A stretch of DNA of 64,000 nt from Candidatus Bathyarchaeum sp. (GTDB lineage Archaea; Thermoproteota; Bathyarchaeia; Bathyarchaeales; Bathyarchaeaceae): positions 1 to 64,000 of the forward strand of contig JAOZIF010000171.1 of the NCBI GenBank assembly GCA_026014495.1, written 5' to 3'. Of this stretch, positions 4,541-53,438 are shown in pieces. Numbering within the stretch: the first letter of the stretch is position 1; every line of letters begins with the position of its first letter. The position numbers were made by a program, and so were the translations under genes. Under the pieces are notes generated by a model, which was not told the origin of the DNA, ran no database searches, and saw only the letters and a list, made by a program, of their open reading frames with translations.

Positions 4541-5470
4541 ATGTGCTGTGCTTTTGTTGTCATGTTTTCCGTTTCGTTTTCTGAGTTTTCTGATTAAAAA
4601 TATTCCAAACCCAAACCAGAACAGTAGGATGCCTCCGATTATGAGTAAAAGTGGAAACAAAATATGTGCGAGTTCGATTGGAAGAGCAAGGTAGTGAAAA
4701 ATTAAACCTAGTACTCCCAAAGATGTTCCAATGCCTCCAAAGAAGAGTAGAGGTCGAATGTCCAGCATTAACCTTAACGTGACTCCAAGTATCCTGCCGC
4801 CATCTTTTAATGGATTAAGTTTTGTTTCTCCCACCCTTGTGCTGTAACTTATGGGAACTTCACGTATTCTGGCATCAGCAGAATGGGCTTCTGCGAGTAT
4901 TTCCATTGCTAAAGGCATGCCTACAGCCACTAAATTCATGCGTTCTAGGAGCTCAGATTTGAAGGCTCTCATGCCACTTTGAGTGTCAAACACGCTAAGT
5001 CCCAAAGCTAATTTCGCAACTAGCGAGAGCATTCTGTTTCCAAACCTGTTAACTAATGGCATTGCCCCCTTTTCCATTCCCGCAAACCTGTTACCTACCA
5101 CCATGTCTGATTCATCCTTCAAGATAGGCTCTACCAGTTCGGGTATATGCTTGGGGTCATAGGTCATGTCTGCGTCCATCATCACAATAATGTTAGCATT
5201 TAGTTGCTTTCTAGCATACAAAAAACCAGTTTTCAAGGCATCTCCATACCCTTTGCCTCGCTGGTAAATTACATCTGCGCCCATGTCCTTAGCAATTTGG
5301 TCTGTACCATCACTGGATCGTCCATCTACAATCAGTACTCGATGGTTATAGTTGGTCATTGCCTCTTTTATGCCGCTCAACACTTTTCCCACAGCTTTGG
5401 ACTCGTTTAATGTGGGGATTACAACGACAATTTTTGTTGCAGAACGTTTAGCTTTGGTTATTTTTTTCAT
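4538..5470 (-). CDS. GT2 glycosyltransferase (dolichol-phosphate mannose synthase-like)
   Basis: VVIPTLNE, VDGRSSDGT, DADMTYDP, DTQSGMRAF motifs; two C-terminal TM helices. Confidence 0.9.
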   Translation of the reverse strand: MKKITKAKRSATKIVVVIPTLNESKAVGKVLSGIKEAMTNYNHRVLIVDGRSSDGTDQIAKDMGADVIYQRGKGYGDALKTGFLYARKQLNANIIVMMDADMTYDPKHIPELVEPILKDESDMVVGNRFAGMEKGAMPLVNRFGNRMLSLVAKLALGLSVFDTQSGMRAFKSELLERMNLVAVGMPLAMEILAEAHSADARIREVPISYSTRVGETKLNPLKDGGRILGVTLRLMLDIRPLLFFGGIGTSLGVLGLIFHYLALPIELAHILFPLLLIIGGILLFWFGFGIFLIRKLRKRNGKHDNKSTAH

Positions 5471-5616
5471 CCACCAGATTTGCTGAAGCTAAATATTCAC
5501 TACTCCACTTCTTAGCATTTACGCAAGAAACAACGTGAAAACAACAAAAAGCCCCCAAGTCGCCCTTACGGCTATGAGATTATTGCAACAAACTGGATTA
5601 ACTGGCGCTTTGGCTG

Positions 5617-6579
5617 CTATGTAGCTAGTGTTTGTGCAAGTTTCATCAGGGTTAAGTCTAGTTGTTTTTGGTTGGTTGTAACTTCTTGCAGACCTATACT
5701 GGTTACTTTGCCTTCTTCTAACCCAACCATCATGTTCCCCTGCTTTTGCAGTAACAGGTCTACCGCTTTTTCTCCAAACAAGTTAGCCAATAATCTGCTT
5801 CTGGCTGTGGGGTTGCCGCCTCTTTGCGCATACCCTGTAACACTCAACCTGACCTCTACCCCTGCTCTCTCCTCGATGGCTTTTAGCAGTTTATATGTGT
5901 CACCGATTCCTTCTGCAGCCACAATAATACCAGACTTTTTGCCTTTAGCACCATTAACTTCCAAAGTGTGCACAATGCTTTCTAGGTTGTACTCAACTTC
6001 TGGAACTAAAATCACCTCAGCACCAACAGTTAACCCAATAGTCAAGGCAAGAAAGCCTCTTGTTCTACCCATAACTTCAACAACAAAAATTCGTTCATGC
6101 GAATTTGCTGTATCCCTAATTTTGTCAATCTCACCAATCGCCGTGTTCACTGCAGTGTCAAAGCCGATTGTCTCTTCAGTGCCATACACATCATTGTCGA
6201 TTGTTGCGGGAATGCCAACAATCAAAGTGTCCGAGATTTTGCTTAACTCTAAAGCGCCACGTAACGAGCCATCCCCGCCAACAACAACCAGCCCATCAAC
6301 ATCATTTACTTCAAGAGCCTTTACAGCCTTTTTTCTGCCTTCTGGCTTTCGAAACTCTGGGCTTCGGGATGTTCGAAGAATCGTGCCGCCAACATGAAGG
6401 ATGCCGCCGACGTTTCGGGGAGTCAATTCCCTAAATGTGTTACTGATAAGTCCATCCCATCCACGCTCAAAACCAATAACTTCCAAACCTTTCGAACAAG
6501 CAACACGAGTAACTGCTCGTATTGCAGCATTCATTCCGGGAGCATCTCCTCCGCTTGTCACCAATGCAATTCTCTTCAT
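5617..6579 (-). CDS. pfkA: ATP-dependent 6-phosphofructokinase (PfkA family); start moved to MKRIALVTSGG
   Basis: TSGGDAPGMNA, GGDGS, PATIDND, EVMGR motifs. Confidence 0.93.
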   Translation of the reverse strand: MKRIALVTSGGDAPGMNAAIRAVTRVACSKGLEVIGFERGWDGLISNTFRELTPRNVGGILHVGGTILRTSRSPEFRKPEGRKKAVKALEVNDVDGLVVVGGDGSLRGALELSKISDTLIVGIPATIDNDVYGTEETIGFDTAVNTAIGEIDKIRDTANSHERIFVVEVMGRTRGFLALTIGLTVGAEVILVPEVEYNLESIVHTLEVNGAKGKKSGIIVAAEGIGDTYKLLKAIEERAGVEVRLSVTGYAQRGGNPTARSRLLANLFGEKAVDLLLQKQGNMMVGLEEGKVTSIGLQEVTTNQKQLDLTLMKLAQTLAT

Positions 6580-43310: not shown

Positions 43311-44231
43311 TTACCAGCCTGTTCCCCGTGCCACAGCCTTACTTCGTAGTACTCCAAGACCAACACGTTCCGATGCTGCGATGCCGTATCTGTCTTGTTT
43401 GGGGTTCTCGAAGGGCTCTGTTATGATGTCTCTTCGCAGAAGCATTACAGCGGCTACGTCTGTGTCTATGCAGTAGACTGTTCCATCAGCTACTTTGGTG
43501 CTGACAACAATCTTCATTCCAAGATATGTTTCGCCCAAGATTCCTCGGCGAATGTCAGCCATGCCTCCAAAATAGAAACTGTGAATAAACTGGTCTTGCT
43601 GCCATAGGTCAGCGAGCTGCGCAGGGTTTATCACTAGTGCTTTGGCGTTGAAGTTTTCGGCTTTTATTCTGTTCCAAAATCCAACAAGCCCTGCCCAGTC
43701 TAGGGTTCCGGAGCCATTGTATTCGTTTCCTCCTGCTAGGTCGCTTGTTGCTATGTTGTCGTATGCTTCTAGGATTTTTTCGGTTTCTAGTTCTGCGATT
43801 GCTCTTCCTACTTCAGCTGTTTGGCGTTCCATTACGCCCCATGATGCGTCTTCGAAGAATTTTTTGGAGTATTCTGCTCCTGCTTTGATTTCCATGTCCG
43901 CCTTGACGTCTACAGTGTCATATTTTTCTTGGGTAATCCACACCTGTGAGAGTTCAGCTGTTCTGTGAGCTTTTCCTAGTTTTGCTTTAGGAAATCTAAC
44001 AAGAGTTTCAGTAGTGGGTAAAACCCAGATGATTTCTCTTCCAATCAGTGCAGGTTGCGCTGCGTCCACGACCACATCATGCATCTTTCCAAGAGCATTG
44101 GCAGTGTCGCTGAGGATGGCTTCTCGCATTACTGCATTGACCATCAGATTCGATTTAGCTCGCTCCAAGAGTTCAGGAAGGATTGGCTTGTATTCGGGGT
44201 CTTTTGTTATGGCTTCAAAAAGTTTTGGCAT
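43311..44231 (-). CDS. Major capsid protein, HK97 fold
   Basis: 306 aa; E-loop-like VRFPK, spine helix (ERQTAEVGRAIAELETEKIL), ALVINP, LGMKIVVS, ERVGLGVLR. Confidence 0.88.
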   Translation of the reverse strand: MPKLFEAITKDPEYKPILPELLERAKSNLMVNAVMREAILSDTANALGKMHDVVVDAAQPALIGREIIWVLPTTETLVRFPKAKLGKAHRTAELSQVWITQEKYDTVDVKADMEIKAGAEYSKKFFEDASWGVMERQTAEVGRAIAELETEKILEAYDNIATSDLAGGNEYNGSGTLDWAGLVGFWNRIKAENFNAKALVINPAQLADLWQQDQFIHSFYFGGMADIRRGILGETYLGMKIVVSTKVADGTVYCIDTDVAAVMLLRRDIITEPFENPKQDRYGIAASERVGLGVLRSKAVARGTGW

Positions 44232-44245
44232 AGTATATTCCTCTG

Positions 44246-44665
44246 TTAGGCTTTTGTAACGTGGATCAGTCCAGTGTCGCCGCTTCCAAAGCTCTGTAGG
44301 GCTACTCCTACTGCTCTTGCGATTCTATCGGGGACTTCAGTTTGGTCGTATGTTGCTGAGCCGTCAGCTAATGATATGGCTTGGGCGTCTGCGTCTGTTT
44401 GCACAGCTTCGCCTCGAGCTATTGTGTCTCCTGCTGTTACTTTCACTACTCCACGGGTGCACACTGAGCAAAATTCTCCACTTACTACAGTGGTTAAGGC
44501 TACTCCAAGTGCATGCTGGGTTGTTGCAGTGCATTTGTTGACTGTCATGTCTGCGCTCAGGTACACAAGGTCGCCTTTTGTTATGGTTGAGGCAGCCTCA
44601 AAACTTAGTGCTGTCCCGTCGCTTATCATTTCTCCAACTTCTGCGTCAGGCCATAGGTCAGTCAC
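44246..44665 (-). CDS. Capsid cement/decoration protein (DUF2190-like)
   Basis: ITKGDLVYL, ALGVA, VCTRGVVKV, IARG..V patterns; GGAGG SD before GTG. Confidence 0.75.
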   Translation of the reverse strand: MTDLWPDAEVGEMISDGTALSFEAASTITKGDLVYLSADMTVNKCTATTQHALGVALTTVVSGEFCSVCTRGVVKVTAGDTIARGEAVQTDADAQAISLADGSATYDQTEVPDRIARAVGVALQSFGSGDTGLIHVTKA

Positions 44666-44702
44666 GTTAACTTCCTCCAGTTTTTTTGCGGTTTCGTCAA
44701 GT

Positions 44703-45920
44703 TCATCCTTGCTTACTCCCGGTCACTTTTGTTGACTGTGAAGTTAGCCTGTGCCGTAATTGTCGCACAAGCAGTTGCGGTCCAATGCTCCAGGCTCTGA
44801 CTATCCAGTCTTCGGGCAACATGTTTAGAACATCCTTTCTAAGTATCAAGTCAGAGTTCTGGGGCTCAGAAGGTGTGATAATTGCCTCTTCCAACGGTTT
44901 TGGCACTTCAGGCTCTGTTTCTGGTTGAGGCGATTTAACTGGAGGTGTTTGTGTTTGTTTTTGCACATACTGTGGATGGGTACTAACCCACTCCTTCACT
45001 TTTTCTAATGTCCAGCCTTTGTCCTTCATGAAAAGCAGTGCCATAGGCTGGGGATTCTCTGGTTTATCGCGCAGTAGCCCGTAGATTGCTTGTATTCCGT
45101 TGGTTTGGTCAATCCAAACTGTGGAGAAATGCTCTTCCATGAATACTGCGGACTCAATTATTGGATAAAATATAAATTGCTGTTGAAGCGAAACCTGTTC
45201 GTTCGCTTTTGTTTCATTCTCTTTGAACTTGTTGATTATTGCTTCCCAGAGTTCCACGGTTGTTTGGGGGTCTCCAGGCTGGTAATCTTTCAGGAGTGAA
45301 AGTCCTGTGAATTTGATTCCTCTTGGTGCGTGTCCGTTGAGTTTTTCTAGGGTTTTCCACTCGAATTCTACGCTGCAGTGTTGTATTGTGCCATCCTCGA
45401 TCTGTTTTGTTATATCAGGGTCGTCAAGTTGAGCTACATATTCAATTGCTCCATCTTCATACTCTGCACCGAGTACCCTGCCGTTAATTGGTGTTTTGTG
45501 GTCAAGAATCAGATGTGTTCCTGCTAAGGTGTGAGCGGATTTTTCTAGTTCTTCTTTGAGGTATTCTCTTATCTGTGGCCACTCTTGGGGGTGGACTGTT
45601 CTGATTGGGTGTAGGGCTTTTCCTCGGATCAGGTTTCCTGTTTGTGGAATATTTTTGATTGTGCCTGTCCAGTTGAATGATTCTTTAGCCTGTTTTTCAT
45701 GCTCATTAAACCATTCTTGTGCTTTTTCTGTTGTCCATCCTTTTTCTTTGTTGAACAGGTAACTTACAACTTCTGTTGCTTCTTTATTCCATTGTTTTGC
45801 TGTTATTGCTTGAATGCCTTCTTCTTGGTTGAGGGTTATTGTTTTGAGGGTTTCTGGGTCAAAATCTTCAGGGTTGTTGTGTCCTGAACGAATGACTGTT
45901 TGGGTTTGGTCCCATGGCAA
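44703..45920 (-). CDS. Prohead protease/scaffold with a duplicated accessory domain; TTG start (LPWDQT)
   Basis: Central LILDH...CSVEF protease-like core flanked by two GIQAI...LF.K.KGWT.EK..EW domains. Confidence 0.7.
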   Translation of the reverse strand: MPWDQTQTVIRSGHNNPEDFDPETLKTITLNQEEGIQAITAKQWNKEATEVVSYLFNKEKGWTTEKAQEWFNEHEKQAKESFNWTGTIKNIPQTGNLIRGKALHPIRTVHPQEWPQIREYLKEELEKSAHTLAGTHLILDHKTPINGRVLGAEYEDGAIEYVAQLDDPDITKQIEDGTIQHCSVEFEWKTLEKLNGHAPRGIKFTGLSLLKDYQPGDPQTTVELWEAIINKFKENETKANEQVSLQQQFIFYPIIESAVFMEEHFSTVWIDQTNGIQAIYGLLRDKPENPQPMALLFMKDKGWTLEKVKEWVSTHPQYVQKQTQTPPVKSPQPETEPEVPKPLEEAIITPSEPQNSDLILRKDVLNMLPEDWIVRAWSIGPQLLVRQLRHRLTSQSTKVTGSKQG

Positions 45921-46100
45921 ACTTTTGCACCTAACATGATTGGTGCGATGCAATGTTAAAAGATGAAATCAGCACTTGAGACAGATTAACTATTGTGCCA
46001 TACTTGGTTTTTGTTGTTTTATTTTCGGTTACCTCTCTATGGAACGTTGTTGTTTGTTGGTTAACAGCCTTTTTAGCTGTATTTAGTGAACTTCTTGGTT

Positions 46101-46316
46101 ATGGTAAAAATACAAAAACGGCTAGTGAAGAAGCGATACTACAGTAAGGCAGAATACAAGTACCCAGTGTATTCTTTGACTATACCTAAGGAGTTTCACG
46201 ACCTTCTTAAACCGTTCTTAGATGAAGACTTGGAAGCAAAAGTAGAACACAAAACAGATGTTTTAACAATCACTCTAATGCCAAGCAGTCACAATTCATC
46301 CCGAACCAAGTTTTGA
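46101..46316 (+). CDS. AbrB-like DNA-binding protein
   Basis: YSLTIPKEF motif, ~71 aa. Confidence 0.55.
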   Translation: MVKIQKRLVKKRYYSKAEYKYPVYSLTIPKEFHDLLKPFLDEDLEAKVEHKTDVLTITLMPSSHNSSRTKF

Positions 46317-46999
46317 AATCTTTTTTTGAACTTCAGAAATTATTTATCTGGATTCTTGTTAACTCAGCTTGGGGCATGCTTGTTATGTTTAATAGTAAAA
46401 AGAATCCTGAGCCTTTTACAGACTTTCTTTATTGTTTAGGGAGTTTGGAGCGCAAAAACAGCCAACTATTTGCTGAATTGGCAAGCAAAACCGTTCTTTC
46501 TGAGGTTCGGGGCAACTTGCTCAAGATTTCTGAGGGCAATGAAATGCATGCCAAAGTTCTCATCGAATTGAGTGGTCGGGTTGAGGGTCCAAAGCCAAAA
46601 ACAGGTGAGTGTAAACGAAAACTAAGACCTGTGTGTAAACTTACTGAGTCACTTCTTAATCAGGTGCACAAAAAGAAGACGCTTTCTGCAGATGAGCTTT
46701 CATCTATTTTGCTGACTTTGGAGCGTTCAGGTGGTGCTATGCAGTATTTGCAGATTCAGGCTGAAACTTTTCTTTTTATGTCAAAAGAAATCAGTCAACT
46801 GTATGGCATGAACTTGGAAGTTTTTCATGACCATATTATGGAAATTGCTCAACAAGTGGAAGAACATATAGAACTTTTGGAGGAAGTGAAAACGATGATT
46901 GCACAGAGCACTAGGAAAAAGGATGGAATGCATCATCCAGTGGTTAAGTACCAAACTCCTGATGCATGGTTTCAACCAAGAACTATGGGTGAATCATAG
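46313..46999 (+). CDS. Ferritin-like four-helix hypothetical protein (start probably ~46377)
   Basis: LE...LF..L, E..H..VL and E.H..LL helix pattern. Confidence 0.5.
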   Translation: MKSFFELQKLFIWILVNSAWGMLVMFNSKKNPEPFTDFLYCLGSLERKNSQLFAELASKTVLSEVRGNLLKISEGNEMHAKVLIELSGRVEGPKPKTGECKRKLRPVCKLTESLLNQVHKKKTLSADELSSILLTLERSGGAMQYLQIQAETFLFMSKEISQLYGMNLEVFHDHIMEIAQQVEEHIELLEEVKTMIAQSTRKKDGMHHPVVKYQTPDAWFQPRTMGES

Positions 47000-47503
47000 T
47001 TAAAACTGGTTTAGGCTAAACAGTTCGTCTTTTTGTTTCTTTTTTCTTGGTTTGGGTGTTTCTGCAGGATACCCAAAAGTGACTAGGGCTACGACTTTCC
47101 AGTCTTGAGGAATTTTCAGAGCCTGTTTGATTTTCTCTTCGTTGAAACTTCCTATCCAGCATGAACCGACTCCTAAGCTCCAAGCAGCAAGAACCATGTT
47201 TTCTAAGGCAATTGTAGTGTCGATTGTTGCCCATTTTCCAGTTAACACTGCTTTTGGGTTAGCACATCCAACAATTATAACAGGGGCTTTTTCGAGGAAT
47301 TGACTAAGAAGCCCCTTCAGTTCTTTTTTGATTTTGGCATCTGTTACAATAACGAAGCGGTATGGCTGTCTGTTTGCTGCGGAAGGTGACTGTCTACCTG
47401 CTTCAACTATCTGATCCAAAACATCTTTTGGAATTTCCTTGTTTTCGTAACGTCTAATGCTTTTGCGACTTAAAATAATTTTAAGTATGGACATGAGCAT
47501 CAA
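47000..47503 (-). CDS. Nitroreductase family protein
   Basis: RKSIRRY, PSAANRQP, LGVGSCWIG motifs. Confidence 0.92.
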   Translation of the reverse strand: MMLMSILKIILSRKSIRRYENKEIPKDVLDQIVEAGRQSPSAANRQPYRFVIVTDAKIKKELKGLLSQFLEKAPVIIVGCANPKAVLTGKWATIDTTIALENMVLAAWSLGVGSCWIGSFNEEKIKQALKIPQDWKVVALVTFGYPAETPKPRKKKQKDELFSLNQF

Positions 47504-47581
47504 TACTATTTTGTGGTTTATTGTATATTTATCTGTTCAAACAGTGTGTTTTTGGTTAGTTAATTGCTTGATGGAAATATT

Positions 47582-47595
47582 TAATTAGCTAACTA
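47582..47595. promoter_or_regulatory. Candidate MarR operator
   Basis: TAATTAGCTAACTA near-palindrome overlapping the AT-rich promoter region between divergent nitroreductase and marR genes. Confidence 0.35.
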
Positions 47596-47633
47596 ACTAT
47601 TTTTGATTGATCCTAAACACTAGAGGAATCTGA

Positions 47634-48059
47634 TTGGAAGACAGTTTGAGCTATTTGTTACGCACTGTTGCAATGCGATACCGTTACTATGCACACAACA
47701 TGTTAGGTAAAGACAAATGGGGCGTCAGCCAAGATTTAATCATTTACCATCTTGCAAAACAAAAACATCTTAATCAAAAGGACCTTGTCAACAAACTAAA
47801 CATTACACCCGCTTCAGTTTCAAGTGTTGTTGGTCAGATGGAATCTGAAGGATTACTTGTAAGAGTTCAAGACGAAGAAGATGCAAGAAAATTTAGATTA
47901 TCGCTAACCGAGAAAGGCCAGAATCTGTTGCCCCCTGTAATAAATTCGTGGCTTAACATCCAAGAAGACATAACCAAAGGGTTCACTGAAGAAGAAAAAG
48001 TAACCTTTTTACGTCTTTTAAAGCAAGTAGAACGGAATCTTGACGAGCTAACCCATTAA
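47634..48059 (+). CDS. MarR family regulator
   Basis: NQKDLV...ITPASVS..V.QME..GLLVR..D.EDARKF.LSLTEKG. Confidence 0.92.
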   Translation: MEDSLSYLLRTVAMRYRYYAHNMLGKDKWGVSQDLIIYHLAKQKHLNQKDLVNKLNITPASVSSVVGQMESEGLLVRVQDEEDARKFRLSLTEKGQNLLPPVINSWLNIQEDITKGFTEEEKVTFLRLLKQVERNLDELTH

Positions 48060-48061
48060 CA

Positions 48062-49276
48062 TTGAAAGAGGACTATTTGTTGAAAAATAACCAAAAACCT
48101 GAAGCAGACGATTTCGTGTTTGACAAGCGACTCTACGTAATATTCTTGATAATATTCACAGAAGTGTTGGGTTTCAGCATAGTCTTGCCGTTAATCCCCT
48201 TTTTAGGATTAGAGCTTGGATTAACTGCAGTGCAAATAGGGCTTATTGCAAGTGTGTTCAGTGTCTGTCAATTATTTGCCAGCCCAATAACAGGCAAACT
48301 AAGTGACCACTTTGGACGCAAACCATTGTTCATCTTAAGTCAAATAAGCACATTTGCTGGTTTCATCTTCCTTGGATTTGCTACAACTGCAATTCTGTTA
48401 ATTATTGCACGGTTAATTGACGGATTACTCGGAAGTAACATGACTGTCAGCGAAGCCTACATCAGCGACATAACTGAACCTAAACACCGAACCCGAGTCT
48501 ACGGATATTCCAGTGGAGTATTTGGCGCTGGGTTGATATTTGGTCCTGTTATTGGCGGTGTTCTATCTACAATTAATTATTCTATTCCAATGTTCTTTGC
48601 AGCAGGCATAACATTGGTTTCAATTATCCTGATTTTTTTCCTTCCTGAAACAGTAACTAAAAAGACAGGCAAACTTTCTCTTAGCTTCAATGATGTTCTT
48701 CCTGTTAATGATGTTAAATCCTTCATAAAAAACCACAAAGTAAGAAACAGTTTGTTAATGTTTTTTATTTACAACATCGGATTTCAATTGTTTATCTCTA
48801 ACTTTAGTTTACTCGCAGAAAGCCAATTTAACGCCAGCGCTAACCAAGTTAGCTTTTACATGGCATGGATTGGCATACTACGCGTAATCATCCAAACACT
48901 CCTAATTGCCCGTGTACTGCGCGCCTTGGGTGAAAGACACATCCTAATAACAGGAATACTTTCCATGGCCCTTTCAATGATAACTATTGCATTTTCGACA
49001 GAATATCTGTTTGTTTTCGTTCCATTAATCTTTCTTGCCTATGGCACAGGAGTCAGCAGACCCATTTTAACAAGTAAACTAACAAACAGCGTTACACAAA
49101 AGGAAACTGCAACAATCCTAGGCGTTAACAACTCACTAAATAGCGTAGCCCAAATAATAACACCAATTGTAGGAGGATTTGTAATTGAGTACTTGCCATC
49201 ACAAACGTTACCTATAATGTCAACTGTGTTCTTTGCATCACTGTTACTCTTTCTAAGAAACAGGGCTAAACCTTAA
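48062..49276 (+). CDS. MFS transporter (DHA1/TetA-like)
   Basis: 12 TM segments; GKLSDHFGRK motif A; AYISDIT motif. Confidence 0.92.
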   Translation: MKEDYLLKNNQKPEADDFVFDKRLYVIFLIIFTEVLGFSIVLPLIPFLGLELGLTAVQIGLIASVFSVCQLFASPITGKLSDHFGRKPLFILSQISTFAGFIFLGFATTAILLIIARLIDGLLGSNMTVSEAYISDITEPKHRTRVYGYSSGVFGAGLIFGPVIGGVLSTINYSIPMFFAAGITLVSIILIFFLPETVTKKTGKLSLSFNDVLPVNDVKSFIKNHKVRNSLLMFFIYNIGFQLFISNFSLLAESQFNASANQVSFYMAWIGILRVIIQTLLIARVLRALGERHILITGILSMALSMITIAFSTEYLFVFVPLIFLAYGTGVSRPILTSKLTNSVTQKETATILGVNNSLNSVAQIITPIVGGFVIEYLPSQTLPIMSTVFFASLLLFLRNRAKP

Positions 49277-49309
49277 TCCTACTACCATACAAATAGTGTT
49301 TGAATTAGC

Positions 49310-50584
49310 ATGGTTAATTTAGCAGTTATAGGCGCAGGAATCGGAGGTTGTTCTGCAGCATATTTTGCTCACAAATATATTCCAGACTCAAAGGTGACTG
49401 TTTATGAGATGGAAAACAGAGTCGGTGGAAGAGCCTTTACTTACTCTAAAGAAGAAATGAACACTGAGTTGGGTGCAGAGTTCTTCAATCCCACTAACAA
49501 GACAGTCTGCAACCTTGTAGATGAACTGGGTCTCAAAGTAAAGAAACTCAAGGAGACTACAGATATTGCAGTATGGAATGGAACAGAAATCATCTTCAAG
49601 TCAAGTCAGCCAATGTTTTATAATCTGCTAAAACTGTTCACCAAATACAAGCTTAGTGTGCCACGGCTACTTCGCATGTTAAGAGAAGCAAATGGACAAA
49701 TAAAAAAATTATACACAAAAGAAAAACCTGCAGAGTTCTGGGAACATTTTGAAAATGTTGGTCTTGACAAGTGGCATAAACTGCGGTTTGACAACATTTT
49801 GGTTAACATGGGAATTGACCACAAATTTATAGATGAAATAATCACGCCTATCACAAGGATAATTTACTCCCAAAACGCTGAGCTGGGAGGATTCGCTGGG
49901 CTCTCAGCTTTACTGGGCGTCTATGGAGAAGCAATTTACCGTCTCAAAGACGGCAACGATAGTTTGCCAAGAAAGCTTCTTGAAGCATCCCCTTCTAAGC
50001 TTGAATTAGAAAGCAAAGTGAAAAGCATCGAAAAAACCTCTAAAGGCTCTTTTAGGATCTTAGTTGGAGAGAATGCCTCAGTTTTTGATGCCGTGATTAT
50101 TGCAACACCATTAGAAGTCGCTGATATAGCCATTGACGGAGTGCCAAAACAGTTGCAAGCACGTGAATACCAGAAAATCTACATCAGATTAATGAAGGGA
50201 ACTGTAAATTTGAGGTATTTTAATCTTAATGCATCCGATAAATTGCCCTCTATTATCCTCACTTCCAAACAAGCAGATCCACTAACTCGGTTTTCATTTA
50301 ATAAATCACCAAAAAGCGATGAAACGTGGGTGAGTGTCACCTCAACGGAGCCAATAGGAAACGATCTTTTAGACGAGCTTTTCGAGAACGGGAGAACTAT
50401 TGTAGATCATACTTGGAATGCAGCATACCCAATTTTCAAACCAACCCCGAAACTTCCATCTACTTGCCTTGACAAGGGACTACTATACCTTAACTCGATA
50501 GAATCTGCAGCCTCAAGCCTAGAATCATCAACGTTTGCCGCCCTAAACAGCATAAAAATAATAAAAGAACAACTAGACACCTAA
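49310..50584 (+). CDS. FAD oxidoreductase resembling prenylcysteine oxidase/lyase
   Basis: GAGIGG Rossmann motif, RVGGR, WNGTEIIF, R.IYSQN, GN..L...LL.AS, YLNSIESAASSLE. Confidence 0.75.
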   Translation: MVNLAVIGAGIGGCSAAYFAHKYIPDSKVTVYEMENRVGGRAFTYSKEEMNTELGAEFFNPTNKTVCNLVDELGLKVKKLKETTDIAVWNGTEIIFKSSQPMFYNLLKLFTKYKLSVPRLLRMLREANGQIKKLYTKEKPAEFWEHFENVGLDKWHKLRFDNILVNMGIDHKFIDEIITPITRIIYSQNAELGGFAGLSALLGVYGEAIYRLKDGNDSLPRKLLEASPSKLELESKVKSIEKTSKGSFRILVGENASVFDAVIIATPLEVADIAIDGVPKQLQAREYQKIYIRLMKGTVNLRYFNLNASDKLPSIILTSKQADPLTRFSFNKSPKSDETWVSVTSTEPIGNDLLDELFENGRTIVDHTWNAAYPIFKPTPKLPSTCLDKGLLYLNSIESAASSLESSTFAALNSIKIIKEQLDT

Positions 50585-50729
50585 CATTGCAGCAAAACTA
50601 ATGCTAGATTGTGTTATCACCTGAATAACAGTAATTGCCAGTTCTCTCAAGCTGAGGATTAAAATTTGACTTTTCCTTTTTTATTTATTCAAGATATCTT
50701 TTTATCAACTAGCTAATCTAGTAATATTC

Positions 50730-51632
50730 ATGCCTGAGAGGGAGAAACGGGTTCGTTTTGCTGCGTTTTTGAATGTTGCCTTCACTATCTTAGAGCTTGT
50801 TGGCGGATTGTGGACAAACAGCCTTGCAATTCTTTCTGACGCATTACATGACTTCGGCGACAGTGTCGCATTACTAGCCTCATGGCTTTTCGAACGTGGC
50901 GCACGCAAATCACCTGATACAAACCGAACATTCGGGTACCAACGGCTATCCCTGTTTTCTGCAATATTTGCCGCTTCTATCCTTATTGGAGGTTCTATCA
51001 TAATCATCTTTCAGGCCATACCTCGTTTATTAAATCCAGAAGCTGTAAACGCAACTGGAATGGTTGGCATCGCCATCATAGGCATCGTATTCAATGGCAC
51101 AGGATTCTTTTTACTAAAAAAAGGAGAAAGCCTAAACGAAAAAGTGCTTTCTTGGCATCTCCTAGAAGATGTACTAGGTTGGGTAGGCATTCTTGCTGGA
51201 GCAATAGTAATCTACTTCTGGAAAATTTACATCCTTGACCCAATAATAACAATCGGCTTAACTGTCTTCATCCTCTACAACGTAACAAAAAGTCTCACAG
51301 AAGCAATCAATATCCTTTTGCAGGGTGTGCCAAAACACATCAATCTCGAAGTCGTCAAACAAGACCTAAAATCAATCAAAGGCGTAATTGGAATCCACGA
51401 TATCCACATCTGGTCCTTAGAGGGAGAAACCGATGTCTTCACAGCACATGTAGTGCTAGACAATGAAACCCTAAAAAGCCCTGAACCCACCAAACAAACA
51501 ATCAAAAAAACACTCCAAAAACATCACATTGAACATTCAACAATTGAACTAGAAAGCAAATACCACTGCTCAGGCATGATATGTGAAGAACGGCACACAA
51601 ACAACAAACCAAACAGCGCCCCTGAAAAATAG
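50730..51632 (+). CDS. Cation diffusion facilitator (CzcD-like Zn/Co/Cd exporter)
   Basis: SDALHD, TFGYQR, HLLEDV, IHDIHIW, HSTIE motifs. Confidence 0.93.
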   Translation: MPEREKRVRFAAFLNVAFTILELVGGLWTNSLAILSDALHDFGDSVALLASWLFERGARKSPDTNRTFGYQRLSLFSAIFAASILIGGSIIIIFQAIPRLLNPEAVNATGMVGIAIIGIVFNGTGFFLLKKGESLNEKVLSWHLLEDVLGWVGILAGAIVIYFWKIYILDPIITIGLTVFILYNVTKSLTEAINILLQGVPKHINLEVVKQDLKSIKGVIGIHDIHIWSLEGETDVFTAHVVLDNETLKSPEPTKQTIKKTLQKHHIEHSTIELESKYHCSGMICEERHTNNKPNSAPEK

Positions 51633-51866
51633 TTCTTATCCAAGAAAAACAAGGTTTTTGACCCCGGCAAAACAACACAAACAGCCTCACTCAAGCAGCA
51701 GTTTTAACATGAACTTAGATACTGTTTTCATATATCTACCCGAAGAAACGTTTTCGCCCTAGGCGTTTCTTTCCGAATAACTGTTTTACCGCAGCCCAAA
51801 ACAGACCAAACATGTAAAAAAAAGTGATAGCTCCGAAAAAGCTTTCATTTTAGTTGGTGATGCTGT

Positions 51867-52178
51867 ATGCGTCGTGGACCAAAAAAAGGCTCAAAATTCT
51901 GTGACTTGCTAGAGGCACTAAAATTTCTTAACATGTTCAAAAAAACTCCAAAAAACGTGTACCAACTCTATCACAGTAGCCTGCATTTTGACACCAAAAA
52001 AATCTACCGTTACCTTAGATACTGTATCAAAGAAGAGCTTCTAGAAATTGACCACATCGAAGAGGCAAAATTTCTTCCCTCAAAATACTACAGGCTCACA
52101 CAGAAAGGAAGAGACTTCATTGACCTCTTCAATGATTCACACAAGAAACCATTAGCACCTAAACAAAACTCGGCATAG
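51867..52178 (+). CDS. Winged-helix protein upstream of the portal gene
   Basis: YLRYCIKEELL...YYRLTQKG. Confidence 0.7.
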   Translation: MRRGPKKGSKFCDLLEALKFLNMFKKTPKNVYQLYHSSLHFDTKKIYRYLRYCIKEELLEIDHIEEAKFLPSKYYRLTQKGRDFIDLFNDSHKKPLAPKQNSA

Positions 52179-52220
52179 ATGCTCATTTTAACTTAAGACC
52201 AAAAATCACCCACAAAACTG

Positions 52221-53438
52221 TTGGATGTAACAACCTTGAGCGCAGTTGTAAAAAAATTCAAACACCTATACGAAAAACTGCAACCAAACACCGGAACTCT
52301 TCTTCCTGCATGGCGACAAGTCTATGGAGAAACTCGAACAGTCAGTTTCGGTGACATGCTAACCGCTTATGGTCAAGATCCAAGCTGCAAGGCTTTTGTT
52401 GATTTCTTGGCTGACCAAGCTGTAGGTGCAGGGTTCTATACTACAGTTAACGAGCAATACGGCAAAGCTGACCAAACAAAACAAATAGTGGACGACTTCA
52501 ACGAAGCCGTCAACCTTGATGAACTACTCCAAATCGCAGCCAGAGAAATTGTAGCATCAGGCAATAGTTTTTGGCTAAAAACTGAACCCGAAAATCTGCA
52601 AAACCTCAAAATCCTTCCACTAACCGGATTTGATAACCCAACTGCAATAAAACGAAACCAATACGGCACCGTAACAGGTTACAACTACATCTACGGCGAA
52701 GTAAAAACGGCCTTTACACCAGAAAAAATAGTCCACTTCCGTTGGAACCCAACAAATTTTTCAGCATATGGAACTGGTGTCCTTCAAGTATTGCTCAGCG
52801 AACTATGCTTCAACGGAGAAACCAGACTCAGCTTTTTGGAAATGAAAGCCCGAATCGAAAAAATTATGCCTGAAATCTTCGAAAAATATGCAGGACCAGA
52901 CGAACTGTGGATATTCGCCGGGGCAAGCGACGAAAAACTTGCAGAATACCAAAAACTCATAAAAACAAAACCCAAAGCTGGTGCACGATTTGTTTACAAC
53001 AAACCAGAAGCAGACATAAAAACTGTTTCTGTTGACCCAAGGGCACGGTACGAACCCTACATAGATCATGTTCTAAACCAAGTCTATCTGGGCGGACAAA
53101 CTCCCCTGCCAAAGCTTTTTACAACTCCTGGATTCACAGAAGCATCTGCCCGAGCAGCCCTAGACATCGCAGAAAGGAAAGTCATGGCACTGCAACGCTT
53201 CGTAAAACGAACCTGCGAGCGAGAAATCTTTTCTCCTATAATACAGCAGGCGGGACTTGACCCCAAAAAGGCAAATTGCAGACTAAACTGGGGCACAGAA
53301 AAACCTGAAGTTAAACTCGAAGACCTAATCCGATTAGCCGAAATGAGCTCTAATCAAGAAAATCCGATTGTGAGACCTGAGGAAGTGAGAAAAAACTTGG
53401 TTAAAGCAGGCTTTGAGTTGTGGGAAAGAAACCAGTAA
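52221..53438 (+). CDS. Phage portal protein
   Basis: 405 aa; GNSFW, EKIVHFRWN...YGTG, GGQTP, ANCRLNW patterns typical of portals. Confidence 0.88.
   Translation: MDVTTLSAVVKKFKHLYEKLQPNTGTLLPAWRQVYGETRTVSFGDMLTAYGQDPSCKAFVDFLADQAVGAGFYTTVNEQYGKADQTKQIVDDFNEAVNLDELLQIAAREIVASGNSFWLKTEPENLQNLKILPLTGFDNPTAIKRNQYGTVTGYNYIYGEVKTAFTPEKIVHFRWNPTNFSAYGTGVLQVLLSELCFNGETRLSFLEMKARIEKIMPEIFEKYAGPDELWIFAGASDEKLAEYQKLIKTKPKAGARFVYNKPEADIKTVSVDPRARYEPYIDHVLNQVYLGGQTPLPKLFTTPGFTEASARAALDIAERKVMALQRFVKRTCEREIFSPIIQQAGLDPKKANCRLNWGTEKPEVKLEDLIRLAEMSSNQENPIVRPEEVRKNLVKAGFELWERNQ

Follow-up and report, generated by a model that had tools for sequence, protein, structure and literature searches.

To our knowledge, work on prenylcysteine oxidases has been confined to animals and plants, where they perform the last step in the disposal of prenylated proteins. 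PCYOX1 returns its reduced flavin to the oxidised state with O2, yielding H2O2, and the Arabidopsis farnesylcysteine lyase (FCLY), a member of the same family, also uses O2 and converts farnesylcysteine to farnesal and cysteine. FCLY is eukaryotic, targeted to the secretory pathway, and tied to the turnover of CaaX-prenylated proteins, a turnover not found in the organism considered here. Among flavin amine oxidases of related fold, NicA2 reacts poorly with O2 and passes its electrons to a cytochrome c, a precedent for an "oxidase" that does not depend on O2. MarR-regulated efflux pairs are known from MepR-MepA and EmrR-EmrAB. Here we analyse a gene encoding a 424-residue flavin adenine dinucleotide (FAD)-dependent enzyme (hereafter, the oxidase) that follows genes for a MarR-family regulator and a major facilitator superfamily (MFS) transporter in a 64,000-nucleotide stretch of DNA (the window; positions 1 to 64,000 of contig JAOZIF010000171.1, assembly GCA_026014495.1) from Candidatus Bathyarchaeum sp. 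The oxidase is an uncharacterised archaeal member of the known prenylcysteine oxidase family. With moderate confidence, we read it as a cytosolic FAD thioether oxidoreductase of that family, encoded in a lineage-specific block and probably transcribed together with marR and the MFS gene. The analysis establishes family, fold, conserved residues, synteny, and purifying selection; substrate class, electron acceptor, and co-transcription are inferences.

Full-length membership in the prenylcysteine oxidase family, proposed in an initial annotation made from the sequence alone, is solid, and rests on a hidden Markov model search, a match to a solved structure, the predicted fold, and key residues. 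The Pfam model Prenylcys_lyase (PF07156; cut-off 27) matched residues 97-421 over positions 2-353 of its 363, with 171.4 bits and E 3.7e-50, and a six-frame search of the genome returned the same result. An N-terminal FAD domain (NAD_binding_8, 52 bits), with its GxGxxG motif present as GAGIGG at residues 8-13, precedes the PCYOX-specific substrate domain, and each peptide segment quoted in the initial annotation was found in the translation. The sole strong match among Protein Data Bank (PDB) sequences was 9FXQ, an ancestral mammalian PCYOX1 (E 6e-37, residues 4-415); other PDB matches were confined to the first ~90 residues, and NCBIfam models gave merely N-terminal Rossmann matches to protoporphyrinogen oxidases, far under their cut-offs. 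An AlphaFold model (23 homologs; pLDDT 83, pTM 0.85) found 9FXQ as its best match in Foldseek (template modelling (TM) score 0.87/0.80, E 3e-32), followed by NicA2, putrescine oxidase, and monoamine oxidases (TM ~0.65-0.70, E ~1e-20). The searches thus favoured PCYOX1 over the placement among amine or protoporphyrinogen oxidases that the initial annotation had named as its alternative.

Residues of importance in PCYOX1 are likewise retained. By alignment with 9FXQ, with a 20-residue numbering offset, Tyr221 corresponds to Y186 (RIIYSQ) and Tyr433 to Y373 (AAYP). Neither varies among 23 archaeal homologs, and both are conserved in an alignment of 87 family sequences, in which Y186 is near-invariant and R183, Q188, N216, W369, P374, E398, and E405 are also kept. 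In PCYOX1, the Y221A variant is inactive, Tyr221 has been proposed to bind the substrate by its polar cysteine head, and Tyr433 sits against the flavin (PMC11530802). The oxidase resembles mammalian PCYOX1 (9FXQ, PMC11530802) in Pfam family, two-domain FAD architecture, and the counterparts of both tyrosines, but differs from it in being ~60-80 residues shorter, in having no signal peptide or endoplasmic reticulum/lysosome targeting, and in belonging to a strict-anaerobe lineage without detectable protein prenyltransferases. Compared to NicA2 and other flavin amine oxidases (PDB 7C49, 5TTJ, 6CR0, 2YG3), it shares the Rossmann-plus-substrate-domain fold of the superfamily, but is just 13-16% identical to these enzymes, which attack C-N bonds, not C-S bonds, and have no PF07156-specific domain.

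The protein begins straight at the Rossmann strand and GxGxxG motif (MVNLAVIGAGIGG), with two residues preceding the strand, and the median N-terminal extension in the family alignment is 2 residues in Bathyarchaeia and Asgard sequences versus 30 in eukaryote-type sequences. Accordingly, the oxidase and its archaeal relatives appear to have no signal peptide, as read from sequence start and alignment with no dedicated predictor run; for the oxidase, this agrees with the initial annotation. A signal peptide and a secretory or lysosomal location are a trait of eukaryotic members and not of PF07156 as a whole. The gene itself is real, with >200 homologs of ~424 residues, and is under purifying selection, given a ratio of nonsynonymous to synonymous substitution rates (dN/dS) of 0.205 against its closest syntenic ortholog (locus L074). 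Some database records already name such proteins "prenylcysteine oxidase family protein". Coordinates of the features at the locus are given in Table 1.

Table 1. Features of the oxidase locus (coordinates are positions in the window).
Feature	Coordinates	Strand	Basis or remark
Nitroreductase-family gene	47000..47503	-	PF00881, 120 bits; divergent from marR; left flank of syntenic block
Candidate promoter of marR-MFS	47556..47596	+	Palindrome / TATA-like / palindrome layout
Half-degenerate palindrome	47556-47567	+	Promoter read upstream of marR
TATA-like element ATATTTAA	47577-47584	+	Promoter read upstream of marR
Palindrome-like element TTAGCTAACTAA	47585-47596	+	Promoter read upstream of marR
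Shine-Dalgarno-like GAGG	47623-47626	+	3' of second palindrome, before marR TTG start
MarR-family winged-helix regulator, 141 aa, TTG start	47634..48059	+	PF01047, PF12802
MFS transporter, 12-transmembrane type, drug:H+ antiporter kind, 404 aa, TTG start	48062..49276	+	MFS_1, 168 bits
MFS-oxidase junction, 33 bp, free of T-tracts	49277..49309	+	Sequence read
FAD-dependent prenylcysteine-oxidase-family enzyme, 424 aa, ATG start	49310..50584	+	PF07156, 171.4 bits
T-rich tract (T6 + T5), candidate archaeal terminator	50677..50703	+	Downstream of oxidase stop
Cation diffusion facilitator (CDF) gene	50730..51632	+	PF01545, 129 bits, plus ZT_dimer; right flank of block

The close spacing of marR, the MFS gene, and the oxidase gene on one strand, reported in the initial annotation, is borne out by the open reading frame coordinates (gaps of 2 bp and 33 bp, all on the + strand), and scans of the window for Rfam families and tRNAs gave no matches. 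The first two genes look like a conserved regulated pair. MarR exceeded the cut-offs of two Pfam models (PF01047, 39.8 bits versus 24.6; PF12802, 40.2 bits versus 27) and had 140 homologs at E<=1e-10, mostly of 141 residues and 63-81% identical, with one source using the name "MarR family transcriptional repressor of mepA"; a search of 80 further genomes of the order (species representatives) gave no ortholog at E<=1e-10. The best NCBIfam model for the transporter, that of the Tet(A)/(B)/(C) efflux family, reached 199.5 bits, far under the cut-off of 475, which rules out a Tet equivalog and leaves a general drug:H+ antiporter-type MFS transporter. Against L074, dN/dS is 0.125 for marR and 0.125 for the MFS gene.

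The promoter layout is kept upstream of marR in five contigs (the window, L074, L075, L076, and L077), in which consensus palindromes TAGTTAATTAACTA and TTAGTTAACTAA flank an invariant TTTAA, followed by the Shine-Dalgarno-like element and the TTG start. These palindromes are a candidate operator. The marR promoter is the sole match with one mismatch to the operator motif in the window; the window-wide search yielded 6 matches versus 5.1 expected, a chance level that gives no sign of a wider regulon, and none was found before the oxidase or CDF genes. In having a small marR gene just upstream of, and nearly overlapping, a pump gene, with palindromes in its own promoter, the pair resembles known MarR-efflux pairs, but it differs from them in its archaeal promoter layout, its only distantly Tet-like pump, and the addition of a flavoenzyme gene via a local deletion. 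The linkage of marR to the MFS gene is itself ordinary and lineage-specific.

How the oxidase gene came to adjoin this pair is apparent from comparison with L074, in which a family 2 glycosyltransferase (GT2) gene lies between MFS and oxidase genes. Nucleotide alignment (blastn) pairs window positions 49183-49279 with L074 4951-5047, and 49297-49407 with 5988-6098, such that ~940 bp of L074, comprising the MFS-GT2 spacer, the GT2 gene, and most of the GT2-oxidase spacer, are missing in the window. The L074 GT2-oxidase spacer bears a T-tract and a TATA-like box, both of which are gone from the window. The tight junction thus stems, as judged by this alignment, from a difference of ~0.94 kb by which GT2 and the spacer upstream of the oxidase gene were lost. 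Since oligo-T terminators are known in archaea, the T-tracts 3' of the oxidase stop may act as a terminator. Because the 33 bp left between the MFS and oxidase genes contain no T-run and T-tracts follow the oxidase stop, the oxidase gene has probably become part of the transcription unit of marR and MFS, and the ~0.94-kb difference would thereby have put it under the MarR-controlled promoter. The three-gene operon of the initial annotation therefore stands in part: the MarR-MFS pair with its conserved promoter recurs in four contigs, but the oxidase junction is lineage-specific, as GT2 or a spacer parts MFS and oxidase genes in the other four, sister genomes have no marR, and most other lineages have neither gene nearby. 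The coupling of the oxidase to marR-MFS looks secondary, and not like a system built for degradation and export.

The genes belong to a syntenic block of variable content that runs from nitroreductase (opposite strand) through [marR], MFS, [GT2], oxidase, and [cysK-cysE] to CDF, where brackets denote genes not always present. Variant A, with marR and no cysK-cysE, comprises the window and L074-L077; variant B, with cysK-cysE and no marR, is found in Ca. Bathyarchaeum tardum (L047), L004, L005, and L045. marR and cysK-cysE were mutually exclusive in the 10 loci seen. Nitroreductase orthologs (67-83% identity) occupy the same position in L004, L005, L045, L047, L076, and L077, and CDF orthologs (81-84% identity) lie downstream of the oxidase gene in L004, L047, L074, L075, and L076. 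MarR homologs 68-79% identical share contigs with oxidase homologs, and four contigs carry MarR-MFS-[GT2]-oxidase-CDF; these overturned the impression of a MarR linkage unique to this genome, which 0/48 loci from species representatives had suggested. GT2 resembles polyprenyl-phosphate hexose transferases, under their cut-offs, and is directly upstream of the oxidase gene in 7 loci. In variant B, cysK (TIGR01139, 460 bits versus a cut-off of 351, hence equivalog-level) and a serine O-acetyltransferase gene (cysE) directly follow the oxidase gene (L004 5119-7103, L005 7333-9317, L045, and L047). The pair is not at the window locus; cysK paralogs of this genome are only 45-47% identical and lie elsewhere, on contigs C97 and C194; the query used retrieved no cysE from it.

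Several further observations concern this block. Its G+C content is 0.38-0.40 from nitroreductase to CDF (46000-52000), versus 0.44-0.46 in the adjoining upstream 42-46 kb. The window oxidase is 61-64% identical to oxidases of the same genus and flanking genes are 71-82% identical, as if the oxidase either evolves faster or was replaced within the lineage. In L005, a 152-residue emp24/gp25L/GOLD protein (PF01105, 37.5 bits, cut-off 25.9) is encoded between the MFS and oxidase genes (5138-5596, +), placing one eukaryote-typical family next to another; similar reading frames occur in L006, L009, and L045, in or beside the GT2 slot. Genes for an HK97-type capsid (PF25209/PF05065), a 139-residue cement-like protein, a 416-residue protein, a PadR-like protein, and a 405-residue protein flank the redox/efflux block (window 43311-45953, -, and 51867-53438, +; L074 280-2884 and 8551-10122). 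Because their order is kept, at 78-89% identity, in the Bathyarchaeum metagenome-assembled genome (MAG) GCA_003096235.1, these virus-like genes are conserved chromosomal neighbours and not a recent insertion.

PF07156 is sparsely distributed in archaea. It was detected in 7/301 species genomes of Bathyarchaeia (5/107 genera), in three of the eight genomes of the genus, in 5/401 genomes across the phylum (all within the same order), and in 11/301 Asgard genomes, with 0/14 among control genomes. In one Asgard genome (G841, contig C293, 7200-8170; loci L071 and L073), the domain is split over two adjacent frames with in-frame stops, and this gene may be a broken copy. An exhaustive profile search returned 559 clusters (50% identity) at E <= 1e-30, with named members from Amoebozoa, fungi, Ichthyosporea, Cnidaria, and Diplonema, together with one Chloroflexota MAG and Actinomycetota clusters. 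Prokaryotic relatives of the eukaryotic family, which the initial annotation had considered possible, therefore exist in Bathyarchaeia, Asgard archaea, and bacteria.

Trees were quick LG+G4 inferences with support from the Shimodaira-Hasegawa-like approximate likelihood ratio test (SH-aLRT) only. Bathyarchaeia oxidases group as a clade (SH-aLRT 98) embedded in Asgard sequences, and the combined archaeal clade (support 92-99) falls among eukaryotic sequences if rooted on a bacterial-type clade; eukaryote monophyly was not quite rejected by the approximately unbiased (AU) test (delta lnL 37.2, p 0.069). The phylogeny that the initial annotation called for thus yielded an archaeal clade with Bathyarchaeia inside Asgard. 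The archaeal clade appears to lie near eukaryotic sequences, and a transfer in either direction would be compatible with these trees, in which only about a dozen rows were named, the root is not fixed, and models were simple; AU groups were named after the first tree.

Outside the lineage, the oxidase keeps different company. Its closest homologs (77-79% identical) adjoin GyrI-like and rubrerythrin genes and lack a nearby MFS gene or marR. Rubrerythrin is a peroxide reductase of anaerobes. Its gene was seen 0.8-2.8 kb upstream of oxidase homologs that are 61-79% identical (L002 4645-5223, L017 2621-3199, and L018), a placement that may be relevant if the oxidase makes H2O2, or may be coincidence. 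A UbiA prenyltransferase gene lies directly upstream on the same strand in six Bathyarchaeia loci (L024, L026, L031, L035, L036, and L046), whose oxidases form a clade sharing ~46% identity with the window oxidase, and in one Asgard locus (L065 2892-3782). These UbiA neighbours belong to no recognised subfamily, and a shared Bathyarchaeia-Asgard cassette was rejected, the two UbiAs being dissimilar (BLASTP E 0.85). Other Asgard neighbours include EamA transporters (two loci), an MFS transporter (one), ABC exporters (one), and a PALP-like gene.

By analogy with PCYOX1, the oxidase would most likely abstract a hydride from the carbon beside the sulfur of an S-substituted L-cysteine, with a probably hydrophobic or isoprenoid S-substituent, to give free cysteine and an aldehyde; in a strictly anaerobic lineage the electron acceptor may be other than O2, or may be trace O2. 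Cysteine release from S-substituted cysteine is supported, by this analogy, by the conserved catalytic tyrosine, the fold, and the linkage to cysK-cysE; for the substituent, family precedent and the neighbouring UbiA and polyprenyl-phosphate GT2 genes suggest an isoprenoid.

A number of observations weigh against this reading. Identity to PCYOX1 is just ~27%, and the tunnel residue Val234 is replaced by S199 (S, V, or A in archaeal sequences; V or I in eukaryote-type sequences); S199 is small, so the tunnel is probably open. Matches to alpha and beta subunits of protein prenyltransferases, which could supply prenylcysteine, fell under the cut-offs in the organism's own genome (2.19 Mb, 93% complete) (PF00432, 21 bits versus 26.5; PF01239, 25 versus 29.5), and no match to the alpha subunit (PPTA) was obtained in five Asgard carriers. 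In those carriers, PF00432 repeats lie mostly within open frames of 1,800-2,000 residues; matches to the ICMT family are present but not diagnostic, as they occur also in 5/14 control genomes. Ca. B. tardum, which carries the gene, is a strict anaerobe inhibited by 2% O2 (PMC10477458), and this argues against routine use of O2 by the oxidase. By analogy with NicA2, the oxidase could plausibly use an acceptor other than O2. Intragenic T-runs in the MFS gene could lower read-through into the oxidase gene. No neighbour is universal in the family, and the commonest is found in <=7 of ~60 loci; since many of these loci are close kin, few of the neighbour associations are independent. Finally, full-text literature searches returned no paper on prokaryotic or Asgard members.

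The strongest rival follows the initial annotation: a dedicated inducible system in which MarR would sense a prenyl-thioether or its aldehyde product, the oxidase would cleave the thioether, and the MFS transporter would export the product or import the substrate. We consider it possible, though unlikely. Here the three genes lie close together and are plausibly co-transcribed, the marR promoter has conserved palindromes, MarR-MFS-[GT2]-oxidase recurs in four other contigs, and Asgard homologs have transporters of other families beside them (EamA twice, MFS once, ABC once). Yet in the other MarR contigs the oxidase gene stands ~0.5-1 kb from the MFS gene, in L074 behind a spacer that bears a T-tract and a TATA-like box, and in the window no operator motif precedes the oxidase gene. 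Genomes of the same genus keep MFS and oxidase genes without marR, the closest oxidase homologs have neither nearby, and the flanking nitroreductase-MFS and CDF genes look more like inherited synteny than a functional unit.

The PCYOX fold might, alternatively, act on a substrate other than a cysteine conjugate, either another isoprenoid thioether, ether, or amine made by UbiA or polyprenyl-phosphate enzymes, or a xenobiotic thioether. Recurrence of UbiA and GT2 neighbours in several clades, the lack of a detected protein prenyltransferase, the low identity to characterised members, and Ser at the Val234 position are all compatible with such a substrate, as is the slow degradation by PCYOX1 of salirasib, a non-cysteine thioether (PMC11530802). 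This is rather improbable, however, in view of the retention of the cysteine-head residue Tyr221 as Y186 and of Tyr433 as Y373, and of the linkage of cysK and cysE to the oxidase gene in Ca. B. tardum and its relatives.

Archaeal lipoproteins bear thioether-linked archaeol on cysteine (PMC12462473), and the oxidase could in principle recycle the S-archaeol (diphytanylglyceryl thioether) cysteine of broken-down lipoproteins. We think this very unlikely: the lipidation enzyme AliA has been placed in Euryarchaeota and DPANN, outside this phylum (PMC12462473), the oxidase is present in just ~2-4% of genomes in Bathyarchaeia and Asgard, by far too few for a housekeeping role, the archaeol thioether carbon is, by our own chemical reasoning, not allylic, and the enzyme is cytosolic and the anchors are outside the membrane. 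Eukaryotic contamination or mis-binning, raised in the initial annotation and suggested by a family best known from eukaryotes and an archaeal clade near eukaryotic sequences, has next to no probability, because the region is syntenic with Ca. B. tardum: flanking genes are collinear with, and 71-86% identical to, its complete chromosome (L047) and other Bathyarchaeia MAGs, oxidase homologs are named Candidatus Bathyarchaeota or Bathyarchaeum, the gene has no introns and >200 archaeal-type homologs, and archaeal and eukaryotic sequences separate in the trees, so that by gene order and identity the contig is archaeal.

Returning to the preferred reading of a cytosolic thioether oxidoreductase, its significance is that an enzyme related to prenylcysteine oxidases is present in strictly anaerobic-type archaea without protein-prenylation machinery. 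Its neighbours point separately to cysteine supply (cysK and cysE) and to isoprenoid lipid chemistry (UbiA and polyprenyl-phosphate GT2), which raises the testable questions of which thioether is cleaved and which electron acceptor is used without O2. Asgard members near the eukaryotic branch make the origin of the eukaryotic enzyme testable by a better-sampled phylogeny. A bolder and doubtful proposal, to which we give little credence, is that the archaeal clade without signal peptides, Asgard at its base, represents the stock of eukaryotic PCYOX and in anaerobic archaea acts as an O2-independent thioether dehydrogenase on S-isoprenyl-cysteine-type substrates made by neighbouring UbiA-type enzymes. 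If true, chemistry that makes and breaks lipid-cysteine thioethers would be older than eukaryotic protein prenylation.

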